Below are positions 21,166 through 36,682 of a stretch of DNA of 64,000 nt, piece by piece. The notes under the pieces were generated by a model, which saw nothing but the letters and a program-made list of their open reading frames with translations, searched no databases and had not been told where the DNA came from. The stretch covers positions 168,093 through 232,092 of the forward strand of contig JBDTZG010000003.1 in the NCBI GenBank assembly GCA_040005235.1, read 5' to 3'. Origin of the DNA: Acidobacteriota bacterium. Its GTDB lineage: Bacteria; Acidobacteriota; Thermoanaerobaculia; Multivoradales; UBA5704. The position numbers were made by a program, and so were the translations under genes. How positions within the stretch are numbered: the first letter of the stretch is position 1; each line of letters begins with the position of its first letter.

Positions 21166-21452
21166 GGGTTCTGAGTCTCTCGAAATTGTCTGAGCGTTTC
21201 GGTCTTAAGTGCCGACAAATTCTAGCATAGCCGGCCTTTCAAGCGCCGAAAAGCCGGGGCTGCCGGTTACCTGCCGGCTCCTTGCCTCCATCCGACACGT
21301 TTCGCTCTCGTTTCTCGCGTTTCTCTTGGGAGGCACCGGCACCCTGGTGTTCTTCGCGCGAGCGCTGTGATAGACCTTTCACCACAACGTCCCCACTTGG
21401 AAGAAGGGAGCCTCGGCGCGACGCGCGTCCCAGGCGAAGGGTGCGATCAGCT

Positions 21453-23351
21453 ATGAATCATGTCCTGGCGATCAGCCTGGGGCCGGTCCAGGAGTTCCTC
21501 GCCGCGGCGCGCCGGACGCGCGACCTCTGGTTCGGCTCGTGGCTGCTCTCCGAGCTGGCCCGCGCGGCGGCGAAGGCGATCGAGGCGCGGCATCCGGGCA
21601 GCGTCATCTTTCCCGCCGCGGACGCGCTGGCCGACGGCGATGCCACGTTCGCCAACAAGATTCTCGCCCGCGTGCCGGACGATCCGGAGAGTGCGGCGGG
21701 AGCCGCGATCGAGGCGCTCCAGAAACGGCGTGACGAGCTGCGCGAGATGGCGTTCAAGGCTCTCGGCGATCTGAAAGAAACCGAATTCCACCGCGCCGCC
21801 GCCGGGGCGCAGGTCTCCGACCTGATCGAGATCCAATGGGCGAGCGCTCTGGAGTTTGGCGGAGAAGCCGGCTACGCCGACGCCCGGCGGACCGCGGAAG
21901 GAGTGCTCGCGGCGCGCAAGAACCAGCGCGATTGGATTCAACCCCACTGGGGCGCACCGGTGCCGAAGTCCGCGATCGACGGCCTGCGCGAGTCGGTGAT
22001 CGACGAGAAGCTCTTCGAAGGGAATACCGGTTGGGACGCCGAGCGGCTCTACAAAACCTTCGGCGTCGAGGGGGGCGAGCGCCTCGACGGTGTCTCGCTG
22101 CTCAAGCGCCTCGGCCGCCAGAGGGGTCGCCCCCTCGATCATCACTTCGCGAGCACCGGCCACATCGCGGCCTGGCCGCTGCTCGAACGGCTGAGGAAGC
22201 CAGGCGAGGACGAAGGCGCGCGGGCCAAGGTCAAAGTGGCGTGGGACCGCCTGAAAAGTGCGATCGTGGATTCTGGCGTCGACCTCCGCGATCATGAGGT
22301 TTACGCCGCTTCGGACCCTGCCGGAAACCGGGAGGAGCACCCGATCCTCGGCCGGCTGGACGGCAGCCTGCTGTTCGAGGGGCGCCTCGCCGATCTCTTC
22401 CGCGACCGGACGGAGGTCGACGCACAGGGGAAGAGGCGGCCGATCTCGGCGGCGGACCGTCGCCGGCTCGCCGCGAAGCTGCGCGGGGCGCTCGCCGATT
22501 TCCTCAAAGCCGCGGAGCTTCCCGCACCGCTCCCCTACTACGCGATCCTCCATGCCGACGGCGACCGGATGGGTTCCGCCATCGACCACCTCAAAGAGCT
22601 GCCGAGGCATCGGGAGCTGTCGCAGCAGCTGACCGCTTTCGCGGTCGAGGCCCGGAGGATCGTCGAGGCGACACATCACGGCGAGCTGGTCTACGCCGGA
22701 GGCGACGACGTGCTCGCCTTCCTGCCGTTGCACGAGGCGATTCCCTGCGCCCGCGCCCTGGCCGACACGTTTGCCGGGCTGCTCGAAGATTTTCCCGACG
22801 AGGACGACGTCAAGCCGACGCTTTCGGTCGGCCTCGGCATCGCCCACTTCATGGCGCCGCTTTCCCGGACGCTCGAGTTGGCGCGCAGCGCCGAGAAGGA
22901 CGCCAAGGCGGTCCCGGGCAAGAACGCGCTCGCGCTGCGGATCGACAAACGCTCCGGGCCGACGCTCCGCTTGGCCGGGAGCTGGACAACGATCGATCTC
23001 GATCTCGAAAACTTCGCGAAGCTCCACGCCCGGGACGAGATCTCGGACAAGGGGGGCTTCGACCTGCGCGAGCTGGCGCGCCTGATCGAAGGGAGCACCG
23101 GCGACGACCGGAAGAACCTCGAAGATCTCGCCCAGAAGGAGGCGATCCGCATCCTCGCCCGCAAGCAGCCGAAGCATGGCCAGGACGCGGGGCACAGCGA
23201 AGCGGTGCGCAAGAGGCTGCGCGAGATCCTGGAGCGCTCGAAGTCGATCGCCGCGTTCGCCGACCGGCTGATCGCCGCGCGCCTGTTCGGCGAGGCCCTG
23301 GTGCAATCCGGCCGGCCGATTCCCCCGCTCGAACCCGAGGTTGTGGCATGA
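21453..23351 (+). CDS. cas10: Type III-B CRISPR large subunit Cas10/Cmr2
   Basis: SLGPVQEFLAAARRTRDLWFGSWLLS N-terminus, YYAILHADGDRMG, and an intact LVYAGGDDVL palm motif. No HD domain. Confidence 0.96.
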   Translation: MNHVLAISLGPVQEFLAAARRTRDLWFGSWLLSELARAAAKAIEARHPGSVIFPAADALADGDATFANKILARVPDDPESAAGAAIEALQKRRDELREMAFKALGDLKETEFHRAAAGAQVSDLIEIQWASALEFGGEAGYADARRTAEGVLAARKNQRDWIQPHWGAPVPKSAIDGLRESVIDEKLFEGNTGWDAERLYKTFGVEGGERLDGVSLLKRLGRQRGRPLDHHFASTGHIAAWPLLERLRKPGEDEGARAKVKVAWDRLKSAIVDSGVDLRDHEVYAASDPAGNREEHPILGRLDGSLLFEGRLADLFRDRTEVDAQGKRRPISAADRRRLAAKLRGALADFLKAAELPAPLPYYAILHADGDRMGSAIDHLKELPRHRELSQQLTAFAVEARRIVEATHHGELVYAGGDDVLAFLPLHEAIPCARALADTFAGLLEDFPDEDDVKPTLSVGLGIAHFMAPLSRTLELARSAEKDAKAVPGKNALALRIDKRSGPTLRLAGSWTTIDLDLENFAKLHARDEISDKGGFDLRELARLIEGSTGDDRKNLEDLAQKEAIRILARKQPKHGQDAGHSEAVRKRLREILERSKSIAAFADRLIAARLFGEALVQSGRPIPPLEPEVVA

Positions 23352-24598
23352 ATGAAGGCGCGATTTTCCTCATCGAGCCGCGCGATCCGCTGATCGCCCG
23401 CGACGGCCGGCCCGCCCGGCTGGGCGAAGCGCTGGCCACCCTCCCCTTTCCGCCGCCGGGCATGATTGCGGGGGCGGCGCGCACGCGCATGGCCTCGATC
23501 GACGGGGCGTTTTCCTGTGCGGCGGAGGATCTCGACCGGCTGGTCGAAATCCCCGTCCACGGGCCGCTGCTCGCCGAGCTGAAAGAGGACGGAGATGGCG
23601 TGGCCTGCTGGTTCGCGCCGGCCCCACGCGACGCTGTGTTGTTCGGCGATGGATTCGGCGATGGAGTCGGCGGTGGAGTCGGCGACCCGGAGATTCCCAC
23701 CCTCCGGCGGCTGGCACCGCGCCCGGTGCCGCACGGCGCGCTGGCCGGGGGCTTCCGCGGCGAAGGTACGCTGCCGGAAGGTTCCCTTCTGCCCGCGTTC
23801 GCCTCACCCGGCCCGGCAGGAAAGCCGCTCGCCCATCCGCCCGTCTTCTGGCGCTGGTCGAATTTCGCGGCCTGGCTCGGTGCCGAGGGGCAGATCGAAC
23901 CCGCGCCGCTCGGCCTCGGCCGGATCGAACCGGAGCCGCGCGCCCATCTCGCGATCGAACCGGGCGGCCGGGTAGGGCTGGAGGGCCGGGTATTCGAGAC
24001 CCTCGGCCTGCGCTTCCTCGCCGCGCTCCCCGGTGCCGGCCCGCTCGCGAAATTGGCGGTCCGCCGGCTCGCGCTGGGCCTCCGCACTCCCGGGGGCACA
24101 ATCGGCGCGCGCCCGCTGGAGCTGCGCAAGGAACTCGCCCCTCTCGGCGGAGAGCGCCGCCTCGCCCGCTGGCGCCCGGCGACCGGCGCGTCTTGGCCGG
24201 CGCTGCCGCCGGAGATTCGAAAACGAATCGTCGAAACCCGCCGCGCGCGGATCGTCCTGCTCACCCCGGCCGAATTCGAAGAGGGCTCCCGACCCGGCTG
24301 GAACGGCGGCGAGATCCCCGGGCTGGCGGCGAGTGCAGGGGGAGTTACCGTAACAGTCCAAGCCGCCTGCGTGCCGCGCGCCGAGGTGGTCTCCGGCTGG
24401 GATCTCCGACGCGGCAAGGCGAAGCCGACACGCCGTCTGGTCCCCGCCGGCAGCGTCTACTGGGTGGAGCTGTCCGGCACAGGAGACCTCGGCGCCTGGT
24501 GCGACGCGCTCTGGCTGCAACCGGCGAGCGATGCCGAAAGCGCCCGCCGGAACGGCTACGGGCTGGCGGCACTCGGCGTTTGGGAGGAGGAATCATGA
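23348..24598 (+). CDS. cmr3: Type III-B RAMP Cmr3 (Cas5 group)
   Basis: IEPRDPLIARDGRP, LGGERR, LLTPA, VSGWD...KPTRRLVPAGSVY, GYG. Confidence 0.93.
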   Translation: MNEGAIFLIEPRDPLIARDGRPARLGEALATLPFPPPGMIAGAARTRMASIDGAFSCAAEDLDRLVEIPVHGPLLAELKEDGDGVACWFAPAPRDAVLFGDGFGDGVGGGVGDPEIPTLRRLAPRPVPHGALAGGFRGEGTLPEGSLLPAFASPGPAGKPLAHPPVFWRWSNFAAWLGAEGQIEPAPLGLGRIEPEPRAHLAIEPGGRVGLEGRVFETLGLRFLAALPGAGPLAKLAVRRLALGLRTPGGTIGARPLELRKELAPLGGERRLARWRPATGASWPALPPEIRKRIVETRRARIVLLTPAEFEEGSRPGWNGGEIPGLAASAGGVTVTVQAACVPRAEVVSGWDLRRGKAKPTRRLVPAGSVYWVELSGTGDLGAWCDALWLQPASDAESARRNGYGLAALGVWEEES

Positions 24599-25920
24599 GC
24601 CGCATCGCCCCACCTCTGCCGGAGGATCTGTCGACCGCGAGGAAGACGGTCCCCTGGGAACGCGAGATCGAAGTGCAGCTGATCACCCGTTTATTCGGGG
24701 GCGGCGCGAGACCGCGCGAGATCGACGAGCGCTCGTGGATTCGCCCCGCGGCGCTCAAATCGGCGCTCCGCTTCTGGTGGCGGGCTACGCACGCCCACCT
24801 TCCCGAGTACGACTCGCTCAAGAAGCTCAAAAAGCAAGAGGATCTGCTGTTCGGCACCGCGGCGCGCTTTGGCAAGAAGAACGAGATTCTCGGCGGGCCG
24901 GGGTGGCTGTCGGTGGAGGTGTCAGCGGCGGGGGGGAGCCTGGTTCGAGAGGCGTACGACCCTAAGTCAAAGGCCGAGGCCGGCCGTTCCGTCGGGATTG
25001 CTTACTACCCGGCAACGCCGCAGAAAGAGCAAGTAATCCGCCTTGGAGGGGTCGGGAAGGGAAAGGGGGTTCGGTCCCTGATCCGGCTCCGACTCGAACG
25101 ACTCGACCAGGATGCCGTCGGAGAGATCCAGGAGGCCTTGAAAGCTTTCCTCCTGATGGGCGGGGTGGGAGCACGAACTCGGCGCGGCGCGGGATCTTTG
25201 GCGCCTGCGCACGAAGAGGCCGACATCCCGTGTTCCGCCCTAGAGATCGAGCGCTATTTCGCCGAATGGGTGAAAATCGATCCCTCCAGTATTCCGGCCG
25301 GAGTCTTCTCTCTCGCCAGAGCGCAGTGGGTTGTTACTGGGCGTAGCTATGCGACCGGTGAAGAGGCGCAGGAAGCGCTCCTTGATGTGCTGCGTGAGTT
25401 CCGCCAGAAGCGCCTTCACCCCAAGAATTGGGGCAAGGGCGACTATGGGCCAACCCGGTGGCCGGAGCCCTACGCGATTCGAATGGAAGTTGGGACCGGG
25501 TCTCATAAGACCAGCGAGGAACATCGTGAGCAGTTTCCACGCGGAATCCTCGGGCTCCCCATCGTCTTCAAGTTTCATGACAAGGACAAGAATGACCCAG
25601 GACGACACACGCTGGCCGGCGTACGAGAGAATGGCGAAGCCATCTCTCGCTTTGCGAGCCCTCTGCTGCTTCGTCCGATCAGAATCTGGCGGCAGGAGAA
25701 AGGTGAATCGGTCAAAGAGTACCTGCCGGTCGCCTTGTTTACCGAACCGATCCTTCCCTCGGACACGCTTCCTCTCTTGGAGCCCACGCCCGCGGAGGAA
25801 GATCCACGGCCTACCCTTTCTGAGGCGCGCACTTTCTCCGAAACCTCCTTCGCCGAAGCGGCGAAGAACGCCGACCTGCTCGCCAAGCTGAAGACCGCTT
25901 TCCAAGACGGTCTTCGCTAG
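24595..25920 (+). CDS. cmr1: Type III-B RAMP Cmr1
   Basis: LITRLFGGG, IRPAALKSALRFWWRA, GGVGARTRRGAGS, FPRGILGLPIVF, RFASPL. Confidence 0.93.
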   Translation: MSRIAPPLPEDLSTARKTVPWEREIEVQLITRLFGGGARPREIDERSWIRPAALKSALRFWWRATHAHLPEYDSLKKLKKQEDLLFGTAARFGKKNEILGGPGWLSVEVSAAGGSLVREAYDPKSKAEAGRSVGIAYYPATPQKEQVIRLGGVGKGKGVRSLIRLRLERLDQDAVGEIQEALKAFLLMGGVGARTRRGAGSLAPAHEEADIPCSALEIERYFAEWVKIDPSSIPAGVFSLARAQWVVTGRSYATGEEAQEALLDVLREFRQKRLHPKNWGKGDYGPTRWPEPYAIRMEVGTGSHKTSEEHREQFPRGILGLPIVFKFHDKDKNDPGRHTLAGVRENGEAISRFASPLLLRPIRIWRQEKGESVKEYLPVALFTEPILPSDTLPLLEPTPAEEDPRPTLSEARTFSETSFAEAAKNADLLAKLKTAFQDGLR

Positions 25921-25941
25921 AAGAAATAGAGGAAACTGCCC

Positions 25942-26883
25942 ATGCGCACCCGCCTCGTTCTCGTCCATGCGCTCACGCCGCTCCATGCCGGCACCGGCCA
26001 GGCGGCCGGGGCGATCGATCTGCCGATTGCTCGCGAGCGGCCGACCCACATTCCGATCGTGCCCGGCTCGTCGATCAAAGGGGCGTTGCGCGCCCGCGAA
26101 GAGGATGAAAATTGGCGCAAAGTAATCTACGGCCCAGAAACCGAGCTGGCCTCGGAACACGGGGGCGCCGTGCAGTTCTCGGACGTCCACACCGTCCTGC
26201 TGCCAGTCCGAAGCCTCGCAGGGACGTTTGCCTGGGTGACCTCGCGCTACCTTCTTTCGCGCTTCGCCCGCGACGCCCAGGAGGCGGACTTGGCGCTCAA
26301 ACCGGCACCGGCCGCCGCCCGGATGGACGCCTGCGTTCTTGTGCAGGGATCGGTCCTCAAGGTACCGCTAGACCAAACTCAAAGAGTGATCTTGGAAGAT
26401 CTCGATCTCAAGCCGGCCCCGGACGCCTCTCCCGAAGCCGCGACCCTCGCCGCATACGCAGAGACCCTCGGACAGGCGCTCTTTCCGGATCCGCCGGAGG
26501 CTACGGCCGAGCAGAAAGCGGCGAACGCCGCGGCCCAGAAGGATCTGAGCGCCCGCCTCTGTCTGGTCCACGACGACACGATGTCCTACCTGCTCGAAGC
26601 GGCGACCGAAGTCTCGGCCCGGATTCGCCTTGATCCGAAAAAGAAGACAGTCGCCCGCGGCGCGCTCTGGACCGAAGAAGCCCTGCCCACGGAGACGGTG
26701 CTCGCCGGACTCGCGGTCGCGAGCGCGGTGGAACGGGACAACAAGAAGTACATGCCCGCCGATCTCTTCGCGCAAATCGGCAAAGCCGCCAAAGGACTCG
26801 TCCAACTCGGCGGCAAGGCGACCGTCGGCCGGGGCAACTGCCGGGTTCTGATCGTGCCGGCCGCGGCGGGAGGTACAGAGTGA
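25942..26883 (+). CDS. cmr4: Type III-B RAMP Cmr4 (target RNase)
   Basis: TPLHAGTG, IDLPIARE (catalytic Asp present), PGSSIKGALR, QLGGKATVGRG. Confidence 0.95.
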   Translation: MRTRLVLVHALTPLHAGTGQAAGAIDLPIARERPTHIPIVPGSSIKGALRAREEDENWRKVIYGPETELASEHGGAVQFSDVHTVLLPVRSLAGTFAWVTSRYLLSRFARDAQEADLALKPAPAAARMDACVLVQGSVLKVPLDQTQRVILEDLDLKPAPDASPEAATLAAYAETLGQALFPDPPEATAEQKAANAAAQKDLSARLCLVHDDTMSYLLEAATEVSARIRLDPKKKTVARGALWTEEALPTETVLAGLAVASAVERDNKKYMPADLFAQIGKAAKGLVQLGGKATVGRGNCRVLIVPAAAGGTE

Positions 26884-27344
26884 CTCGTGAACAGACGCGC
26901 GCCACGCTCGCTTGGAAGCACGTCGTCGCGGTCGGGGACAAACATGGCAAGGACTCGCCCGGCCGCAAGACTTACGGCACGCTCGCCGGCAAGCTCCCTT
27001 CCCTCCTCCGCTCCGCCGGCTTTTGCCAGGCGGTCCATTTCCTCCGCTCACGCCGCAAGAAGGACGCGAAGCCGAATCAGCCCGACATGGCGGAGCTTCT
27101 GCTCGGCCACCTCGCCGAGCAACTCGGCCAGGTAAGCCAAGGGATCGGCGCGGACATCGAGGCGCTCTGCAAGGCCGCCCGGGAGAGTCCTCTTCCCGTC
27201 TACCTCTGGCTGTCGCGCGAGGCGGTCGCCTGCGCCACCTGGTACGCGAGGCTCGCCAAATCCGAGCTGGAGGTCGAGCCGACCGACGACGCTCCGGAGG
27301 ACAATGCGGCCGAGCCGGAGGCCAAGGCCGAGGCAGCGCCGTGA
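26880..27344 (+). CDS. cmr5: Type III-B small subunit Cmr5 (Cas11)
   Basis: TREQTRA...YGTLAGKLPSLLRSAGFCQA. Helical, and located between cmr4 and cmr6. Confidence 0.9.
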   Translation: MTREQTRATLAWKHVVAVGDKHGKDSPGRKTYGTLAGKLPSLLRSAGFCQAVHFLRSRRKKDAKPNQPDMAELLLGHLAEQLGQVSQGIGADIEALCKAARESPLPVYLWLSREAVACATWYARLAKSELEVEPTDDAPEDNAAEPEAKAEAAP

Positions 27345-28147
27345 GTCTCGAAGGCATCCAGAGTCGTCGGGGGATTTTCGCTCCGCTCAGAACGCCTCCG
27401 CCCACGGCGAATGCCGGGCTCTGGATCGAGAAATACGCCAAGGCGCTCGGTGGCACCGGCTCGCCCAAGGAGCATTTCGAAACGCTCTTTTCGGTGCTAC
27501 CGGACGGCCGCCATCGCGCCCCCGACCTGCCTGCCGCCTACAGCGCCTTCTTCCATCGCTGGCGCGACCACCTGGGGATGCTGCCCCCGGCGACGATCTT
27601 CGCCCGCGCCTCGGCGAGCGGCCGGCTCGCGGTCGGCCTCGGCGCGGAGTCCACGCTCGAAACCTCGATCGCGCTCCATCACACCTACGGCGTGCCCTAC
27701 CTGCCGGGCTCGGCGCTCAAAGGCCTAGCCGCCCACGCCGCGCGCGAGCGGCTCGATCCAGCCTGGAATCCGGAGGACCCGACCGGCCCCTACAACGTCG
27801 TTTTCGGCCGCCTCGAAGAGGCGGGCTTCGTCACCTTCCACGACGCGCTCTGGATTCCCGAGGGGAACGATCCCCGCCTGCCGCTCGACCTCGACGTGAT
27901 GACCGTGCATCATGGCGACTACTACGGCGCCGGCAAGACCCCGCCGACCGATTGGGACGATCCGAACCCGATCCCCTTCCTCTCCGCCCGCGGTTCCTAT
28001 CTCCTAGCCCTCACCGGCCCCCCGGGCTGGATCGAAAAGGCGCTCGAAATCCTCACCGGAGCGCTGGCGGAAGACGGCCTCGGCGCCAAGACAGCGGCGG
28101 GGTATGGACGGATGAAGGTCACGCGGGAAGAAGGGGTCGGGCGATGA
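27341..28147 (+). CDS. cmr6: Type III-B RAMP Cmr6
   Basis: RLAVGLG, LHHTYGVPYLPGSALKG, DVMTVHHGDYY, GLGAKTAAGYG. GTG start overlaps the cmr5 stop. Confidence 0.94.
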   Translation: MSLEGIQSRRGIFAPLRTPPPTANAGLWIEKYAKALGGTGSPKEHFETLFSVLPDGRHRAPDLPAAYSAFFHRWRDHLGMLPPATIFARASASGRLAVGLGAESTLETSIALHHTYGVPYLPGSALKGLAAHAARERLDPAWNPEDPTGPYNVVFGRLEEAGFVTFHDALWIPEGNDPRLPLDLDVMTVHHGDYYGAGKTPPTDWDDPNPIPFLSARGSYLLALTGPPGWIEKALEILTGALAEDGLGAKTAAGYGRMKVTREEGVGR

Positions 28148-28899
28148 AGTGGCGTAGCTGGTTTTTCGGTCTAGTGGCATTGAGCGTCGCGCTCTTGGCC
28201 TCCTGGCTCTCGACGAAAGAGACCGTCCGCCCCCTCTATTCATTCTTCGACGGCACGGGCACCGTGATCGGTTGGTTCCTCTCCTGCCTCACCGTTCTGG
28301 TTGGCGTGGCCGCCTGGTTCGAACGTGCAGCCCTTCGAAGATGGCTCCTCAACCGCCAGTTTCCCCAAGTCGGCGACGACGTTAGAGACTGGCGGAGCCG
28401 GGTCGAGGCTCTGGTAATTCCGGTGAGCCCTCGGCGCGAGCAGCCGGAGTGGTTGATTCGCCATCTCAAGCCGTCTCACGTTTCTTTCCTTTACACCTCT
28501 GAATCCCGAGCGACCGCCGCCGGGCTCGCGAGGGATTTCGGATCTGAGAGCCTTGAGTTCTCGCCTTCCTATCATCAGATAGTCGCCGCAGCGAACGAGC
28601 TCAAGGATCCCAACGATACGCGAGAAGCTCGCACTCAGACGAAATTGTTCCTCGAACGTTTCGACCGTCTCGGCATCCCCCCGAGCCGAGTCTTCGTCGA
28701 TACGACTGCGGGCAAGGTGCCGACTTCGATCGGAGCCTTTCAAGCTGCCGAGGAAGCGGCTGTCGCAACGATCTATATTGTCGGCACAAAGAACGGATTA
28801 ATTCAGGACCCTGGAGATGCGAGCCATGGCCAGCCGAAGTTTGTAAGCAATCCGCTGGCTCGCTCCGAGGATCTTCCGGAAGCTCGCCGCCGCCCATGA
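28144..28899 (+). CDS. Membrane-anchored CARF-domain effector (two N-terminal TM helices plus CARF; Cam1/Cam2-like architecture)
   Basis: Two hydrophobic N-terminal segments, then LVIPVS...PEWLIRHLKP.HVSFLYT and VFVDTTAGKVPTSIGAF (CARF DxT[G/A]GxK-like motif). ATGA-coupled to cmr6. Confidence 0.8.
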   Translation: MKWRSWFFGLVALSVALLASWLSTKETVRPLYSFFDGTGTVIGWFLSCLTVLVGVAAWFERAALRRWLLNRQFPQVGDDVRDWRSRVEALVIPVSPRREQPEWLIRHLKPSHVSFLYTSESRATAAGLARDFGSESLEFSPSYHQIVAAANELKDPNDTREARTQTKLFLERFDRLGIPPSRVFVDTTAGKVPTSIGAFQAAEEAAVATIYIVGTKNGLIQDPGDASHGQPKFVSNPLARSEDLPEARRRP

Positions 28900-29177
28900 C
28901 CCTCGACCTCGCCCTCACCCACGAGCCCCTCTGGCGCGGCCTCGCGATCGAAAACCTGGCGGGCAAACTGACGCTCACGACACCCCCGGCCGTAGCGATT
29001 CCGGTGCTCGCCGCGAACCTTTCGGCGCTGGAAATCGACCCGGAGGAAGTGGTCCTCACCGGCGGCATGGCGATCTGGGCGTATCTGGTCGTGTTCCACC
29101 AACTCCACGGCAGAACGCGGCGGATCGTCTACCGCGACGGCCGCGGGCAGGAGATCCTGGTGGCGGCGCACGGCTGA
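28896..29177 (+). CDS. Csx3/Crn3-like putative ring nuclease
   Basis: 93 aa. VVLTGGMAIWAYLVVFHQLH...IVY...LVAAH resembles the Csx3 core. ATGA-coupled to the CARF gene. Confidence 0.65.
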   Translation: MTLDLALTHEPLWRGLAIENLAGKLTLTTPPAVAIPVLAANLSALEIDPEEVVLTGGMAIWAYLVVFHQLHGRTRRIVYRDGRGQEILVAAHG

Positions 29178-29279
29178 GGGGCCACCCCGTAGCCCCGATC
29201 GAATGTAGAATCGCCCGCGTTCCTGCCGTTCTGCATGGTTCGAGGAGCTGGGTATTCAGTAAAGTAAAAGCAACCCTCG

Positions 29280-29477
29280 TGCCAGTTTTCAAGGCTGGGG
29301 GCGGAGAAATGGGAGGGGGGTTGCGAACGGCGCCCGAAGTTGTTCCTTGACAATCAGTTAGCGAGGTTTCCGGGAGACGAAAAGGAAGCGAAGTGCAGCG
29401 TAAGCGAAGCGAAAGTCGAGAGGTAGCGAAAATCGAGCCCGCAACCGGCGTAGAATCAAGGCCTTGCAGAGGCGGCA
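29280..29477 (+). promoter_or_regulatory. CRISPR leader 1
   Basis: 198 bp directly upstream of repeat 1 and near-identical to 31161-31358. Contains an IHF-consensus match AATCAAGGCCTTG at 29454-29466. Confidence 0.85.
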
Positions 29478-30443
29478 GTCGGAACAGCCCTGATCTGGAC
29501 GAAGGGATTGCGACTTTCGTCTGGCATGCAATAGTCACGATTGACTTTTTGCGGGTCGGAACAGCCCTGATCTGGACGAAGGGATTGCGACTCGGCGAGC
29601 TCCTGGAGGGTCCAGAGGTTGTCTTTGCGCTCGTCGGAACAGCCCTGATCTGGACGAAGGGATTGCGACTGAGCTTGTCGCCTTCTTTTCGGTTCATCGC
29701 CATTTCGTCGGAACAGCCCTGATCTGGACGAAGGGATTGCGACTCCTGGCGACTGCCAAAGCACGGTAGTACCGCGATTCGTGTCGGAACAGCCCTGATC
29801 TGGACGAAGGGATTGCGACGAATCGACTTGCCGGGTGCCTGGTTGGGCGAGAGGTGGAGTCGGAACAGCCCTGATCTGGACGAAGGGATTGCGACCCCCA
29901 CGTGTTGTCGTAGGTGGCGGGATGTTCGTATTTCCAGTCGGAACAGCCCTGATCTGGACGAAGGGATTGCGACATCGTGCCGAGCAGGATTGTGAAGAGC
30001 TGCGTTGGTCGAACGTCGGAACAGCCCTGATCTGGACGAAGGGATTGCGACGTAAAGCTTGGGCGAATCGGCATTAGAGGTCCCTGTAAGTCGGAACAGC
30101 CCTGATCTGGACGAAGGGATTGCGACTTCTTGAGTAACGCGAAGTTTCCGAGACCGAACCCAACGTGTCGGAACAGCCCTGATCTGGACGAAGGGATTGC
30201 GACGGGGACGGGGATATGAACGAGGGTTCGTGTCACCACGATCTCCTCGTCGGAACAGCGAACAGCCCTGATCTGGACGAAGGGATTGCGACGCGAGCAC
30301 CGACACATAGAGGTCAAATGCGGACACAAAGGTCGGAACAGCCCTGATCTGGACGAAGGGATTGCGACTTCGTTGGTGGGAAGCGTTGGCAGTACCGAGT
30401 CAAAAGGTCGGAACAGCCCTGATCTGGACGAAGGGATTGCGGA
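29478..30443 (+). CRISPR. CRISPR array 1: 13 repeats, 12 spacers (37-45 bp)
   Basis: 37-bp repeat GTCGGAACAGCCCTGATCTGGACGAAGGGATTGCGAC with a CCCT/AGGG stem and an ATTGCGAC 3' handle. The last repeat is degenerate. Confidence 0.98.
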
Positions 30444-30775
30444 TCACCGATTTGCCGCGGGATCGGCCTTCCCTCCGCAGGGATCACCCTTCCCTCCGGC
30501 GGGATCACTGTTTTTGGGCCAAAATCACTGTTCCTTCCAGCGGGATCACCGATTTTGGGCCAAAATCACTGTTCCTCCCGGAGGGATCACTGTTTTTGGG
30601 CCAAAATCACTCTTCCCTCCAGCGGGATCGGTGATTTTGGGCCAAAATCGCTGTTCCTTCCGGCGGGATCACCGTTTTTGGGCCAAAATCGCTGTTCCTT
30701 CCCGGGGGATCGGTGATTTTGGCGAAGGATCGCCCCTCCCCCGGGCCGGATCGCTGATTTTGGAGCGGGATCATC
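30442..30775. repeat. Tandem repeat with a 41-bp period (alternating 20- and 21-bp subunits) containing TTTTGG-G-CCAAAA palindromes
   Basis: GATC/AATC anchors at 30482, 30503, 30523, 30544, 30564, 30585 and onward. Confidence 0.9.
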
Positions 30776-30879
30776 CTTGTCGGCGAGTCCGGGGGCACCC
30801 GCAGCCGGGACGATCGCATGACTCTGGCCTTTCGGCGACCGCGCGCTACCCTCCGTCGGCATTTATCGCGTCTTTCGAT

Positions 30880-30987
30880 GTGACCTCTCCCCTGCTCGCC
30901 GTCGGCACCCAGCTCGAAGCGGTGCTCGATCGCGGCAACCTGATGGCGGCGTTCTCGAAGGTTGCGGAGAATTGCGGTTGCGCGGGA
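30880..30987 (+). pseudogene. 5' fragment of a reverse transcriptase gene (RT0-like region)
   Basis: Translates to VTSPLLAVGTQLEAVLDRGNLMAAFSKVAENCGCAG, matching the NL..A..KV..N.G.AG(VDG) start of group-II-intron-like/CRISPR RTs. The match breaks abruptly. Confidence 0.7.
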
Positions 30988-31132
30988 CCGCCTGCGCGAG
31001 CGTCTGACTGCCAAGGTGGCGGAAGACGAGGACAGCGTGCGAATCTACCGCCTCTGCGCCGACTGCCGAGCGAAAGTCGAGATCCTCGGCCGCGGCGGGG
31101 TGACGGAAGATCCTGAGATCTACGTGATCTGA
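30986..31132 (+). pseudogene. cas2: 3' fragment of cas2
   Basis: Translates to DRLRERLTAKVAEDEDSVRIYRLCADCRAKVEILGRGGVTEDPEIYVI*, the typical Cas2 C-terminal half (DSVRIYxLC..C). No start or N-terminal half. Confidence 0.85.
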
Positions 31133-31160
31133 GTTCCTGTAGATAAAGCAGCAAGCGGCA

Positions 31161-31358
31161 TGCCAGTTTTCGAGGGTGGGGGCGGAGGAATGGGAGGGGG
31201 GTTGCGAACGGCGCCCGAAGTGGTTCGTTGACAATCAGTTAGCGATGATTCCGGGAGACGAAAGGGAAGTGAAGTGCAGCGTAAGCGAAGCGAAAGTCGA
31301 GAGGCAGCGAATTTCGAACCCGCAACCGGCGTAGAATCAAGGCCTTGCAGAGGCGGCA
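31161..31358 (+). promoter_or_regulatory. CRISPR leader 2
   Basis: Ungapped copy of leader 1 (13 mismatches in 198 bp by manual count). IHF-like site at 31335-31347. Confidence 0.85.
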
Positions 31359-31780
31359 GTCGGAACAGCCCTGATCTGGACGAAGGGATTGCGACTCCGT
31401 CAGATTCAGATACGCCTCGTTAGGGGCATGGACCGACAAGTCGGAACTGCCCTGATCTGGACGAAGGGATTGCGACAGCCCCCGCCCCCTTCTTCTTCGA
31501 CGGGGCCTCGAATGAGTCGGAACTGCCCTGATCTGGACGAAGGGATTGCGACTCGATCAAGCTCGACGGAAGCGGATCCTGCTGCCGAGTCGGAACTGCC
31601 CTGATCTGGACGAAGGGATTGCGACTTATTAGCAGGCATTCTCTCGCCAACCTTACTATCTCGGTCGGAACTGCCCTGATCTGGACGAAGGGATTGCGAC
31701 TCATACGACAACCACATCGTCAGGCCAATCACACTGTCCAGAGGTCGGAACTGCCCTGATCTGGACGAAGGGATTGCGAG
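31359..31780 (+). CRISPR. CRISPR array 2: 6 repeats, 5 spacers (36-44 bp)
   Basis: Same 37-bp repeat. Repeats 2-6 carry A>T at position 9 (GTCGGAACTGCC), and the last repeat ends in G. Confidence 0.98.
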
Positions 31781-32608: not shown

Positions 32609-32701
32609 GCCGACGAACATAACAAGAATGTTACTTCCGAGCAAGCCAGTCTGTTGAAGGATTTCGGAGCGCGAGTACAACTCTCAGAGGTACAAGCCCG
32701 A

Positions 32702-33661
32702 CTACGCCGCCTCGATCGCCAGCTGGCCGAGGCCGAAGACCGTTCCCTTGCCGACGTGTATCACCTCGGCCGCGCGCAGGAGGGGCGCGAGCGGTTCGAG
32801 ATCGCCGCGGAGGTCGAGCGTGCCCTCGTAACCGCCGAGGGGAGTGTGGGTTTGCTGGCGCTGGCTGTAGCGCTCCACGTCGTGAAAGCGGAGATCGGTC
32901 CCCACGACTTCGAGCGTTCCGGCGTGCTCTAGGAGCGGCTTGAACGTCCAGTCGATTGTTGAGTCCGGCGCATGGAAATGCGCCAGCTCCAGTAGGCGAC
33001 GGATCATGGCGAACGCCAGCGCCCGCGGGCGATCCGGCGGCACCACGCGCTTGTGGTCGAGCAGGCGTACGGGGGTGACGAAACGCAGCCGCACGCGGTG
33101 GCCGTCGCCGGGCAGCGGTTCGTTCGGAAGCGGTGCGCCGCTCGGCGGGATCGGCTCGACCCCTGCGACCGCGAATTCCGCCTTGCGGCCTGCCACCGCC
33201 GCGCCGAGCCCTCCGGCTGCCAGACGCTCGACCGCGGCGAGTGCGTACCTTTGCAGCTCGATCGCCCGGCCGAACAGAAGCAGGTCGAAGCCGAGCGTCT
33301 CGCCTACGGCGAGGGTGGTGGTGGTGCTGCGCGGCTCGAATAGGTACGGGCGCGGCGCAGTCGTCACCCCGGCGAGAAAGCTCAGCGGCTCCAGCGGCTG
33401 CCCAGGGTTCGGCGTCTCGAAAATCCGCGGATAGGGGCACTCGCTTCGCAGCACGCAAGTAGGGCACGGCGCGTCCGGCCCGAAGCTGCAGACCGTCTTC
33501 CTTAGCGCGTGGCCGAAGGCACCGCGAAGAGTCGAGCCGTGAAACGGCGGCAGCCGCGCCGGGGTGAGCGCCCGAAGGGTGATCCGAAAGCGCGCATGGC
33601 GCAGCTCGGGCAGCACGTACGGAAGCCCGGCGCCTGAACCCGCCGTTTCGTTCGCGATCAC
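32702..33661 (-). CDS. cas6: CRISPR pre-crRNA processing endoribonuclease Cas6
   Basis: GSTLRGAFGHALR, C..CPTC....CPY Cys cluster, PRPY, LRFVTP, and C-terminal G-loop HVGKGTVFGLG. GTG start overlaps the rsmA stop. Confidence 0.92.
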   Translation of the reverse strand: MIANETAGSGAGLPYVLPELRHARFRITLRALTPARLPPFHGSTLRGAFGHALRKTVCSFGPDAPCPTCVLRSECPYPRIFETPNPGQPLEPLSFLAGVTTAPRPYLFEPRSTTTTLAVGETLGFDLLLFGRAIELQRYALAAVERLAAGGLGAAVAGRKAEFAVAGVEPIPPSGAPLPNEPLPGDGHRVRLRFVTPVRLLDHKRVVPPDRPRALAFAMIRRLLELAHFHAPDSTIDWTFKPLLEHAGTLEVVGTDLRFHDVERYSQRQQTHTPLGGYEGTLDLRGDLEPLAPLLRAAEVIHVGKGTVFGLGQLAIEAA

Positions 33662-34560
33662 GAATCCGGAGGATAGCGCGCCGGGATCGGCACTTGATGG
33701 ATCGCCAGGAATTCGCCCAGGCCGAGCGCCTCGGCGCGGAGGCCTGGATCGATGCCGGCGGCATCCAGCACCGCCGCGGCGCGCTCTTTTCCCCAGCCGG
33801 CGGCGAGGGCGTTCTTGAGCGTCTTCCGGCGTTGGCCGAAGGCCAGGCGGACCATTGCGATGAACGCGGGCATTTCGGCCGGCGGCAGCGGCGGCGGACG
33901 GAGGTTGAAGCCGACGAACCCGCCGTCTACTTTCGGCGGCGGGCGAAAGCTTCCTTTCTTCACCTGGCCCAACAGGTGGGCGTGGGCGTAGGCCGCGACC
34001 AGCACGCTCATCGAGCCGTAGGCTTCGTCCCCGGGGCCGGCGACCAGCCGCTCGGCCACTTCGTATTGCACCAGCACGGCGGCGCGCGGAACGGCCGCAG
34101 CCCGGGTGAGGATTCGTTCGATCAACGGGGTCGCCACGTTGTAGGGCAGGTTGCCGGCGACCAGCGTCGGGTCGGGCAGCCGTTCCCAGGGGATTTCGAG
34201 CGCGTCTCCGGCGACGATCGACAGCTTGGGCAAGTCGTGGCTCAGGTTGTCCCGGAGCGACTGGCCGCTGCCGAAGGCGCCCGAAGGAGCGAGGAGGCAA
34301 CCTGAGCCACGACCGAACCGACTGCGCAGCGCGAACGCCCATTCCGGATCGACCTCCCAGGCGAGCACCTCGGCTCCGGCGCGCAGCAGCTCGGCGGTGA
34401 GCACCCCCCCGCCCGGGCCGATCTCCAGCACACGCGCCCCGGCGATCGGCGAGAGGAACTCGATCAGCGGCCGGCAGAGAGCGCCGTCCACCAGGTGGTG
34501 CTGGCCGAAGGTCTTTTTGAGCGAAGGTCGTCCCGGGGCCATGGGCCGGGACGGTATCAC
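33658..34560 (-). CDS. rsmA: 16S rRNA m6,2A dimethyltransferase RsmA/KsgA with an in-frame insertion
   Basis: KKTFGQH, VLEIGPGGG, AGNLPYNV, FRPPPKVD, FGQRRKTL, RAEAL. Confidence 0.95.
   Translation of the reverse strand: MIPSRPMAPGRPSLKKTFGQHHLVDGALCRPLIEFLSPIAGARVLEIGPGGGVLTAELLRAGAEVLAWEVDPEWAFALRSRFGRGSGCLLAPSGAFGSGQSLRDNLSHDLPKLSIVAGDALEIPWERLPDPTLVAGNLPYNVATPLIERILTRAAAVPRAAVLVQYEVAERLVAGPGDEAYGSMSVLVAAYAHAHLLGQVKKGSFRPPPKVDGGFVGFNLRPPPLPPAEMPAFIAMVRLAFGQRRKTLKNALAAGWGKERAAAVLDAAGIDPGLRAEALGLGEFLAIHQVPIPARYPPDS
34234..34313. repeat. 80-bp palindromic element, copy A (inside rsmA)
   Basis: Perfect 16-bp terminal inverted repeat GTCGTGGCTCAGGTTG/CAACCTGAGCCACGAC. The core matches 62981-63060 in the opposite orientation. 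Confidence 0.9.
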
Positions 34561-34695
34561 CTTGGCCCTGCCATTCCGGCCAATCTGGCACTTCCGGTTC
34601 GAGACCGCAGGGGATCGAGCCGCACCGCGGGCGACTTCCCCGCGTCCCGCCGGAGCCTCCTGATGGCACTTCGATTGCAGCCGGGGAGCCTCGCC

Positions 34696-35685
<990 letters not shown>

Positions 35686-35710
35686 CCGCTTGAGGCTCCG
35701 CGTTTCTTCC

Positions 35711-36682
35711 ATGGCTCCAATGCCCGGCCCGACCCGAGGTTCGTGGTTCTCCCGGTTCCTGCCGCAAAAGGCTGCGGCGCAGGCTGCGCCCGCGCGGCCC
35801 TCGCGGACGGAGCTGCCGGCGGATCTGATGCGCAAGGTGCGGCGGATCGAAATCGCCACCAACCGCTTGGTGGACCAAGGGGTCGCCGGAGATTTCCATT
35901 CGGTGTTCAAAGGGCGCGGCATGGAGTTTTCCGAAGTCCGGCCCTATCAGCCCGGCGACGACGTCCGCTCGATCGATTGGAACGTCACCGCGCGAATGGG
36001 CGCGCCGTTCATCAAACAGTTCGTCGAGGAACGCGACCTGTCGGTGTTCCTTGCGGTCGACGTCTCGGGAAGCCTGGGCGTCGGCTCGCGCGCGATCTTG
36101 AAGCGCGAGCTGGCGGCCGAGGTCGCGGCGCTCTTGAGCTTTGCCGCCCTGCGCAACCAGGACCGGGTGGGCGCGGCGCTCCTTTCCGATCGGCTGGAGC
36201 TGTTCCTCCAGCCGGCGCGGCGGCGCGCCCAGGTGCTGCGCATGGTGCGCGAGATCCTCGACCGGCCGGCCCACGGCCCCACCGACCTTGAAACGAGTTT
36301 CGCGGCGACCCTCGCGAACCTGAAGCGCCGCTCGGTGCTGTTCTTGATCTCCGACTTCGTCGCCGCCGCCTGCCCGCGCGCGCTCAAGGCTGCCGCGGTG
36401 CGCCACGATCTGGTGGTGATCGAGATCGTCGATCCGCGCGACGTCGATCCGCCGACCACCGGGCCGGTGGTCCTCACCGACTCCGAGACCGGCCGGGTGG
36501 TCCTGGCCGGCGGAGCGAAGTTCGCCCGCGCCCAAGCCGAACGCCGCGCCCGCGAACGGGCCGAGCTGGCGCGGCTGACCGGGAAGATCGGCGCCGACCG
36601 GCTGGAGCTGCGCACCGACCGGCCCTACCTGCCGCCGCTGGTCGCCTTCTTCGAAGCGCGGAAAAAGAGGCTTCGCCGATGA
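35711..36682 (+). CDS. DUF58 domain protein
   Basis: GRGMEFSEVRPYQPGDDVRSIDWNVTAR, DVSGS, ISDF. Confidence 0.93.
   Translation: MAPMPGPTRGSWFSRFLPQKAAAQAAPARPSRTELPADLMRKVRRIEIATNRLVDQGVAGDFHSVFKGRGMEFSEVRPYQPGDDVRSIDWNVTARMGAPFIKQFVEERDLSVFLAVDVSGSLGVGSRAILKRELAAEVAALLSFAALRNQDRVGAALLSDRLELFLQPARRRAQVLRMVREILDRPAHGPTDLETSFAATLANLKRRSVLFLISDFVAAACPRALKAAAVRHDLVVIEIVDPRDVDPPTTGPVVLTDSETGRVVLAGGAKFARAQAERRARERAELARLTGKIGADRLELRTDRPYLPPLVAFFEARKKRLRR

Follow-up and report, generated by a model that had tools for sequence, protein, structure and literature searches.

We found that positions 30880-31132 (+ strand) of the DNA analyzed here are very probably the pseudogene scar of a lost adaptation module, in a type III-B CRISPR locus that probably still interferes with its 17 spacers and adds none. 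The start of a CRISPR-associated reverse transcriptase (RT) gene is followed, out of frame, by the end of a cas2 gene. The identities of both pieces, the junction between them, the missing genes and the lack of a second type-III-like cas1 in the assembly could all be established. The whole stretch analyzed, 64,000 nucleotides in length and referred to as the window, lies on contig C18 of a genome (G000) that comprises 140 contigs and is 100% complete by marker genes.

Identity of the Two Gene Remnants

The RT gene remnant (30880-30987, + strand) was delimited by translation, tblastn and alignment A1. It starts with GTG at 30880, holds the first 36 codons of the gene and reads VTSPLLAVGTQLEAVLDRGNLMAAFSKVAENCGCAG up to position 30987, ending in ...VAENCGCAG with GGA (30985-30987) as the last RT-like codon. 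The frame shifted by +1 reads ...DRLRERLTAKVAEDEDSVRIYRLCADCRAKVEILGRGGVTEDPEIYVI up to a stop codon at 31130-31132, and the D of DRLRERL in this frame is encoded by 30986-30988. The cas2 remnant (30986-31132, + strand), recognized by TIGR01573, PF09827, tblastn and alignment A2, consists of codons 44-91 and the stop codon.

The two remnants meet in a junction of 9 nt (30980-30988, + strand, GCGCGGGAC) with a +1 frame shift. In a codon-level comparison with RT and cas2 of loci L017, L018, L019, and L041 these nucleotides fitted RT and cas2 equally well. The breakpoint and any microhomology are accordingly fixed only to within these 9 nt, and the frame switch that the first-pass annotation had placed at 30986-30987 is correct within this interval.

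The Cas2 piece matched the TIGR01573 cas2 profile (E 1.9e-5; 24.9 bits, cut-off 24.5; profile positions 48-88 of 96) and, below the cut-off, the Pfam Cas2 profile PF09827 (E 6e-4; 20.4 bits, cut-off 23.8; positions 44-73 of 74). By tblastn it was 76% identical over 50 aa to cas2 of L018 and L019, two loci from the same genus (E 2e-22 and 2e-20, respectively). The remnant covers residues 44-91 of the 91-aa Cas2 in alignment A2. Residues 1-43 are absent from it, including the aspartate of VSYD (MLILVSYD... in orthologues), which we take to be the catalytic residue of Cas2. A match to the whole domain in PF09827 or TIGR01573 was not obtained with the window remnant, and we regard the piece, judging by its sequence, as derived from Cas2 and not as a Cas2 protein. 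The cas2 stop (31132) is situated 17 nt upstream of leader 2, the homology of which begins at 31150. The scar thus directly precedes the leader, as had been noted previously, and its Cas2 piece occupies the position of cas2 in L018 and L019, 17-20 nt before the leader.

The RT piece, searched as 36-aa and 72-aa fragments, matched no Pfam or NCBIfam family because the fragment stops before the start of the RVT_1 domain, and its identity was therefore taken from orthologues. In tblastn it was 71% identical over 38 aa to the RT N-terminus of L017, 69% over 42 aa to that of L019 and 59% over 51 aa to that of L018 (E ~1e-13 in all cases). The invariant columns A29, A30, F31, V34, G39, C40, and G42 of alignment A1 are kept in the window. 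The RVT_1 domain (PF00078) with its YADD motif was not found in the window remnant; YADD is present in the L041 orthologue. In relatives the N-terminus is orthologous to RTs that carry RVT_1 and are located beside cas1 and cas2. The RVT_1 matches of these ORFs had E values of 3e-18 in L017, 7e-34 in L023, and 0.0017 (below the cut-off) in the short L018 stump, while the Cas1 profile matched ORFs of L019 and L023 (E ~1e-68, C-terminal two thirds) and the Cas2 profile matched with E ~1e-23. The matches of both pieces are well above chance level.

Altogether, the proposal of the first-pass annotation that an RT N-terminus is joined out of frame to a Cas2 C-terminus was borne out by the translations, the TIGR01573 match and the tblastn orthology. 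The TBLASTN search that it had suggested for both peptides returned Cas2 and RT orthologues; the profile assignment is direct for the Cas2 piece and runs through the RVT_1 domain of the orthologues for the RT piece.

The Intact Module in Related Genomes

A DNA search with positions 30772-31400 gave matches in 29 of 61 related genomes (G000 included), and twelve regions were taken for tblastn. In addition, 92 genomes of the family were searched at the protein level with the RT of L023 as query, which separated the RTs into orthologues with 56-100% identity and group-II-intron RTs with at most 40% identity. The only RT found in the window genome in that search, on contig C11, falls among the group-II-intron RTs. 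RT orthologues were found in 23 places, 12 of them with a full RT without stops and 11 partial (one ending at a contig end).

In L033 (genome G089) the module consists of separate, adjacent genes for an RT of 319 aa, a Cas1 of 330 aa and a Cas2 of 91 aa, a layout shared by L030. L041 (G004), which is from within the genus, has an intact RT of 326 aa with YADD and an intact cas2, with cas1 split between two frames. An RT-Cas1 fusion was not present in L033 and L030, where a separate cas1 ORF of 330 aa follows the end of the RT, nor in L041. The loss of an adaptation module from a type III locus was therefore correctly recognized in the first-pass annotation, but what was lost corresponds to three adjacent genes in the relatives and not to an RT-Cas1 fusion. 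The order in L023, i.e., array, RT, cas1, cas2, leader, array and cas6, matches that of the window, except that cas6 is inverted in the window relative to its orientation in L023 and L031.

Alignment to the intact loci, which had been proposed for mapping the breakpoint, placed it within the 9 nt given above and showed that the window lacks a segment of ~2.0 kb (1970 bp when measured on L033 and 2021 bp on L041). The missing span extends from RT codon 37 to cas2 codon 43 and includes the whole of cas1.

The genome nearest to that of the window by flank identity is G003. On the two contigs examined it contained no RT or Cas2 remnant, and it was rejected as a source of the pre-deletion allele: its CRISPR region is differently built, it has another toxin-antitoxin pair and its cmr genes are ~74% identical to those of the window. 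Comparison of the window with G003 (L025 and L026) gave ~74% identity for cmr (26000-28134), 92% for the leader and 92-95% for cas6, rsmA/ksgA and the downstream genes (32692-36000). These identities suggest that the effector module and its flanks do not share the same history.

The Surrounding Type III-B Locus

The effector genes cmr2/cas10 (21282-23351, profile match), cmr3, cmr1, cmr4, cmr5, and cmr6 are located at 21282-28147 on the + strand. With near full-length NCBIfam and Pfam matches (TIGR02577, PF09700, TIGR02580, TIGR01881, TIGR01898, and TIGR01894/RAMP), the type III-B (Cmr) set is complete and uninterrupted. Two likely accessory genes follow at 28144-29177 (+ strand), a membrane protein with a weak CARF match (TIGR02710, E 3.8e-4) and a weakly Csx3-like ORF (28896-29177; Cas_csx3 E 0.011 to 0.015, below cut-offs) that is 76% identical to an ORF beside cas6 in L031.

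Leader 1 (29269-29477, + strand) precedes CRISPR array 1 (29478-30443, + strand), which has 13 repeats. It contains 12 spacers of 37-41 nt and, next to a degenerate repeat, one of 52 nt. The scar is followed by leader 2 (31150-31358, + strand) and array 2 (31359-31780, + strand), in which 6 repeats of 37 nt alternate with 5 spacers that are 36-44 nt long. The leaders, delimited with repeat family D3 and alignment A3, are 93% identical, and leader 2 contains a TTGACA block that is conserved in the genus. This block is a candidate promoter element by its sequence; a consensus promoter scan of 29100-31500 returned no sites. An HTH and Gp49-like pair (toxin-antitoxin, - strand) lies between array 2 and cas6 (32702-33622, - strand; PF10040, E 1.8e-13), which is 46-53% identical to cas6 of L022, L023, and L031. 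Beyond cas6 is rsmA/ksgA.

Both arrays are read on the + strand, judging by the end of the III-B repeat, ATTGCGAC, and by the degeneration of the terminal repeats. This repeat ending presumably serves as the 8-nt crRNA tag AUUGCGAC. A search of the whole assembly found the 37-nt III-B repeat only in the window.

Between array 1 and the scar we found a 41-bp tandem array (30455-30763) of ~6-7 copies, each unit holding the palindrome TGATTTTGG-G-CCAAAATCA. It was rejected as a regulatory feature of the RT gene, as the palindromic core also occurs in tandem, with 41-, 62- or 82-bp spacing, on six other contigs of G000 (C85, C54, C42, C121, C58, and C87), with 22 sites in all when up to 3 mismatches are allowed. 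The repeat belongs to a dispersed, minisatellite-like family and is not specific for the locus. L019, which is from the same genus, has a different 42-bp tandem repeat of 7.3 copies (2219-2523 of L019, G002 contig C81) that is rich in palindromes and immediately precedes the RT stump, a position equivalent to that of the 41-bp array in the window.

A Single Deletion or Several Steps

The ancestral III-B locus would have carried an RT gene (~320 aa, group-II-intron-like), cas1 (~330 aa) and cas2 (91 aa) between array 1 and leader 2. Loss of ~2.0 kb, from RT codon 37 through cas2 codon 43, would then have joined RT codons 1-36 out of frame to cas2 codons 44-91. We infer that this happened in one deletion event, as the first-pass annotation had assumed and as the length of the missing segment most simply suggests. 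One step and several are not separable on the present material, because a pre-deletion allele from a very close relative was not found among the genomes searched.

A second, tiny cas2 fragment is relevant to this question. Positions 32651-32680 (+ strand) encode LLKDFGARVQ, corresponding to codons ~21-30, and were identical to cas2 of L018 at 29 of 30 positions in blastn (E 1.8e-7); tblastn matched the site to Cas2 residues 10-38 (E 0.001). The fragment has the orientation of the scar and lies beyond the right end of array 2, between the Gp49-like ORF, whose 5' end it overlaps in antisense, and the cas6 stop. Its presence suggests that the listed TTG start of the Gp49-like ORF (32680) is too far upstream. 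It is not derivable from the scar by one simple deletion and points to a more complex history.

The junction may accordingly have arisen in more than one step, through deletions, duplications or recombinations between repeated units of cas2, leader and array, a history that we consider possible but rather unlikely. It would account for the position of the second cas2 fragment 1.5 kb to the right, past array 2 and the toxin-antitoxin pair, and for the orientation of cas6, opposite to that in L023 and L031. A leader together with its first repeat has been duplicated in the window (31150-31396 is a 93% copy of 29269-29515), and relatives have several cas2 fragments beside leaders (the second site in L017, L020, L021, L027, and L028). 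However, the RT and Cas2 pieces retain their order and orientation, the missing length equals the length of the module minus the two pieces, and neither piece contains an in-frame stop or an additional indel.

Spacer Acquisition and cas1 Elsewhere in the Genome

Together with the ~2.0 kb, the locus has lost the whole of cas1, the N-terminal aspartate of Cas2 and the motifs of the RT, YADD among them. As neither piece keeps a catalytic part, the locus cannot make its own integrase. No cas1 was found within the 64-kb window, in agreement with the first-pass annotation, and the only Cas1 of the genome is encoded on contig C68. A Pfam search of the whole assembly gave one Cas1 and one Cas2, both on C68, and for RVT_1 a strong match on C11 (E 2e-39) and a weak one on C35 (E 1e-4, below the cut-off). 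When the assembly was searched by tblastn with the intact trio, Cas1 was 36% identical (C68), a group-II-intron-like RT 38% (C11) and Cas2 41.7% (C68), and the remnant itself was the only Cas2 match at the level of an orthologue (61.7% identical). Thus the search for a cas1 acting in trans, which had been suggested earlier, did reveal a cas1-cas2 pair, but one of type I-C; another cas1 of type III-like kind was not found in the whole assembly. With the genome in 140 contigs, a module on unassembled DNA is possible. The RT ORF on C11 (95096-96143, L006) runs off the end of the contig and is 38% identical to the CRISPR-associated RT; copies of this type of RT, of near-identical length (457 aa), are frequent in relatives.

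Contig C68, which is outside the window, carries a complete type I-C system (cas3, cas5c, cas8c, cas7c, cas4, cas1c, and cas2) and an array of at least 20 repeats of 32 nt, unrelated in sequence to the 37-nt III-B repeat. All 19 I-C spacers are 33-37 nt long, compared to 36-44 nt for the III-B spacers, if the 52-nt spacer next to the damaged repeat is set aside. Nearest to the leader, the III-B spacers measure 40 and 41 nt in array 1 and 44 and 39 nt in array 2. A newly added repeat is copied from the first, leader-proximal repeat. In array 2 this repeat has A at position 9, as throughout array 1, while repeats 2-6 have T. Together with the 93% copy of the leader and first repeat this suggests either that no acquisition has taken place since the change or that the leaders have recombined. 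Repeat substitutions have been read as a sign of rare acquisition in the part of the 2025 classification considered here (PMC12669027).

The III-B arrays might nevertheless not be frozen, if Cas1 and Cas2 of the I-C system, perhaps with Cas4, added III-B spacers in trans. This we regard as improbable. The I-C system is complete, with Cas1c above the curated cut-off and both Cas4 and Cas2 present, and the route stays open at low odds because cooperation in adaptation between CRISPR types has been described in other bacteria (PMC8092290, 10.1101/2024.10.25.620265, as far as these sources are drawn on here). On the other hand, the repeats are unrelated in both sequence and length (37 vs. 32 nt), the leader-proximal III-B spacers of 39-44 nt are outside the I-C range of 33-37 nt, and repeat 1 of array 2 is unlike the five that follow it. 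All three observations are consistent with a lack of recent III-B acquisition, whether in cis or in trans. The "frozen" state claimed in the first-pass annotation fits these observations; given the I-C cas1-cas2 on C68, the practical loss of adaptation is presumed.

The Junction in Separately Assembled Contigs

An error by the assembler, i.e., the joining of two unrelated pieces, or a binning artefact, is very improbable, even though the genome is fragmented into 140 contigs and the region is flanked by repeats. Logan contigs of two public runs cross the junction with 0 differences from the window, one from run X1 (30412-31218, 807 nt) and one from run X2 (30475-31178, 704 nt), each with at least 192 nt on either side of the junction. 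Both flanks also come from one CRISPR locus and are in the same order as in relatives. The two runs are from the same study, may include the source sample and are not fully independent, and what was compared are separately assembled contigs, not raw reads; in run X2 parts of the arrays were uncovered and the depth was uneven. Because the separately built contigs cross it without difference, the junction is not an assembly chimera, and a joining error by the assembler of this genome is excluded. The check for a chimera that had been called for thus came out in favor of the junction.

Interference and a Self-Derived Spacer

Since the effector genes, cas6, leaders and arrays are intact, the III-B system probably still makes crRNAs and interferes, and interference using the 17 spacers held is probably retained. 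Cas10 has GGDD at residue 473, and an HD dipeptide is absent from its first 120 residues. This is compatible with a predicted complex that cleaves RNA and signals by cyclic oligoadenylate. The earlier description of the system as interference-competent is thus plausible from the uninterrupted ORFs, the full-length profile matches and GGDD.

Only one of the 17 III-B spacers matched the own genome. Spacer 3 of array 2 (31553-31588) matches contig C122 (108118-108154) at 36 of 37 positions, with one base missing, inside a gene for a pseudouridine synthase of the RluB/RsuA family. The spacer has the sense of the mRNA, and its crRNA would therefore not pair with the rluB-like transcript. This fits a past acquisition from host nucleic acid, possibly RNA; a single self spacer proves nothing about whether the template was RNA or DNA.

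Decay of the Module across the Family

The intact L033 trio was compared by tblastn to 26 distinct loci, window included, which form a biased sample because they were chosen for matching the remnant or the RT. The trio was full-length in single frames in 8 of the 26 loci (L030, L031, L032, L033, L034, L036, L037, and L038). In three it was full-length but frameshifted, in cas1 for L023 and L041 and in both cas1 and cas2 for L042. Seven loci had an RT N-terminus joined to a downstream part of the module, and all breakpoint pairs were different: RT 36 to Cas2 45 in the window, RT 123 to Cas2 1 (in frame) in L018, RT 67 to Cas1 6 in L019, RT 211 to Cas1 206 in L017, RT 200 to Cas1 136 in L046, RT 236 to Cas2 1 with ~300 bp between in L039, and RT 79-270 to Cas2 57 in L022. 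Only cas2 or cas1-tail fragments were left in five loci (L020, L021, L024, L027, and L028), and the remaining three were otherwise incomplete (L035 with RT only within the flank, L043 cut by a contig end, and L044 with a frameshifted RT and nothing downstream in the flank). An uninterrupted trio was not seen in the loci examined from the genus of the window (G000, G002, G003, G004, and G006), and in three further genomes of the genus the search with the L023 RT found no orthologue of it. By these comparisons, the break-up of the module across this acidobacterial family appears to be repeated and independent.

Two of these loci deserve separate description. In L018 (G006 contig C323) positions 1157-1819 contain an in-frame hybrid ORF of 220 aa, in which ~125 RT residues are fused to a complete Cas2 of 91 aa. 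In L027 (7060-7235, G002 contig C44) 33 nt are 97% identical to 30861-30893 of the window, the region of the RT start. The scar of L027 consists of this RT-start stretch, ~35 nt, cas2 codons 1-36, a leader shortened to ~55 nt and the array. Cas2 fragments beside leaders, noted above for the second site in L017 and for L020, L021, L027, and L028, are from either the 3' or the 5' part of the gene.

It is extremely improbable that a small functional protein of Cas2 or RT origin is made from the 56-codon ORF at 30962-31132 or from the longer frame at 30286-31116, for although both frames are open and L018 illustrates that a hybrid can remain so, long spurious ORFs are common in this G+C-rich DNA, the fragment lacks half of the Cas2 fold and no RT/Cas2 hybrid is conserved, since those of the relatives all differ.

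As a tentative and rather doubtful explanation of the family pattern, RT-cas1-cas2 in the type III-B loci may have been destroyed repeatedly by independent deletions and frameshifts, with effector genes, leaders and arrays kept, because of selection against RT-assisted acquisition, which would capture host transcripts and carry a risk of autoimmunity. The rluB-like sense spacer would then be a trace in the harmless orientation.

Comparison with Known Systems

The scar documents and dates how a type III CRISPR system lost the ability to learn while keeping its memory. A state without adaptation is common in genomes, but seldom are both ends of the lost module still readable. Across the family, the 7 internal deletions, 3 frameshifted and 5 fragment-only modules vs. 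8 intact ones (n=26) form a natural data set in which a possible cost of RT-linked adaptation could be examined. For annotation the scar is a warning, as the open frames on it are not genes. By itself it is a fairly ordinary and well-documented gene-loss event of a known kind; the repeated break-up across the family is what is added, and this is modestly interesting. Among the papers searched, we found no description of this scar or of recurrent RT-cas1-cas2 decay in Acidobacteriota, and other papers or the supplementary tables of RT surveys may list truncated copies.

Escherichia coli strains that have no I-E cas genes are reported to retain remnants of cas next to the leader. Acquisition of spacers from RNA by the type III-B RT-Cas1 of Marinomonas mediterranea was reportedly described in a study from 2016. 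In this bacterium RT-Cas1 and Cas2 acquire spacers from RNA and DNA, in either orientation (PMC5576922, in the part cited here). What it has in common with the present loci is a group-II-intron-like RT that accompanies Cas1 and Cas2 and is encoded next to a type III-B locus with arrays. The systems differ in that M. mediterranea has an RT-Cas1 whereas RT and Cas1 are separate in the relatives studied here, and in that the module of the window is reduced to 36 + 48 codons.

In type III loci, both RTs fused to cas1 and RTs encoded next to it are known (Silas et al., 2017, PMC5513706; Toro et al., 2018, PMC6013744), and RT clades 9 and 13 are not fused to Cas1 (Toro et al., 2018, PMC6013744). RT-linked adaptation has been reviewed (PMC8730458). 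Like the unfused RTs of the first two studies, to the extent described in the sections used, those of the relatives are type III RTs followed by cas1 as a neighboring ORF. The words "truncat" and "degraded" are absent from both PMC5513706 and PMC6013744, and "pseudogene" is used once, of other genes.

Finally, subtypes III-G and III-H and type VII have an effector module and arrays without an adaptation module, according to the portion of the 2025 classification cited (PMC12669027). The locus in the window resembles them in having effectors and arrays without its own cas1-cas2. It differs in that whole subtypes lack the module in those cases, whereas the loss in the window is recent enough to have left both ends of the module in place.
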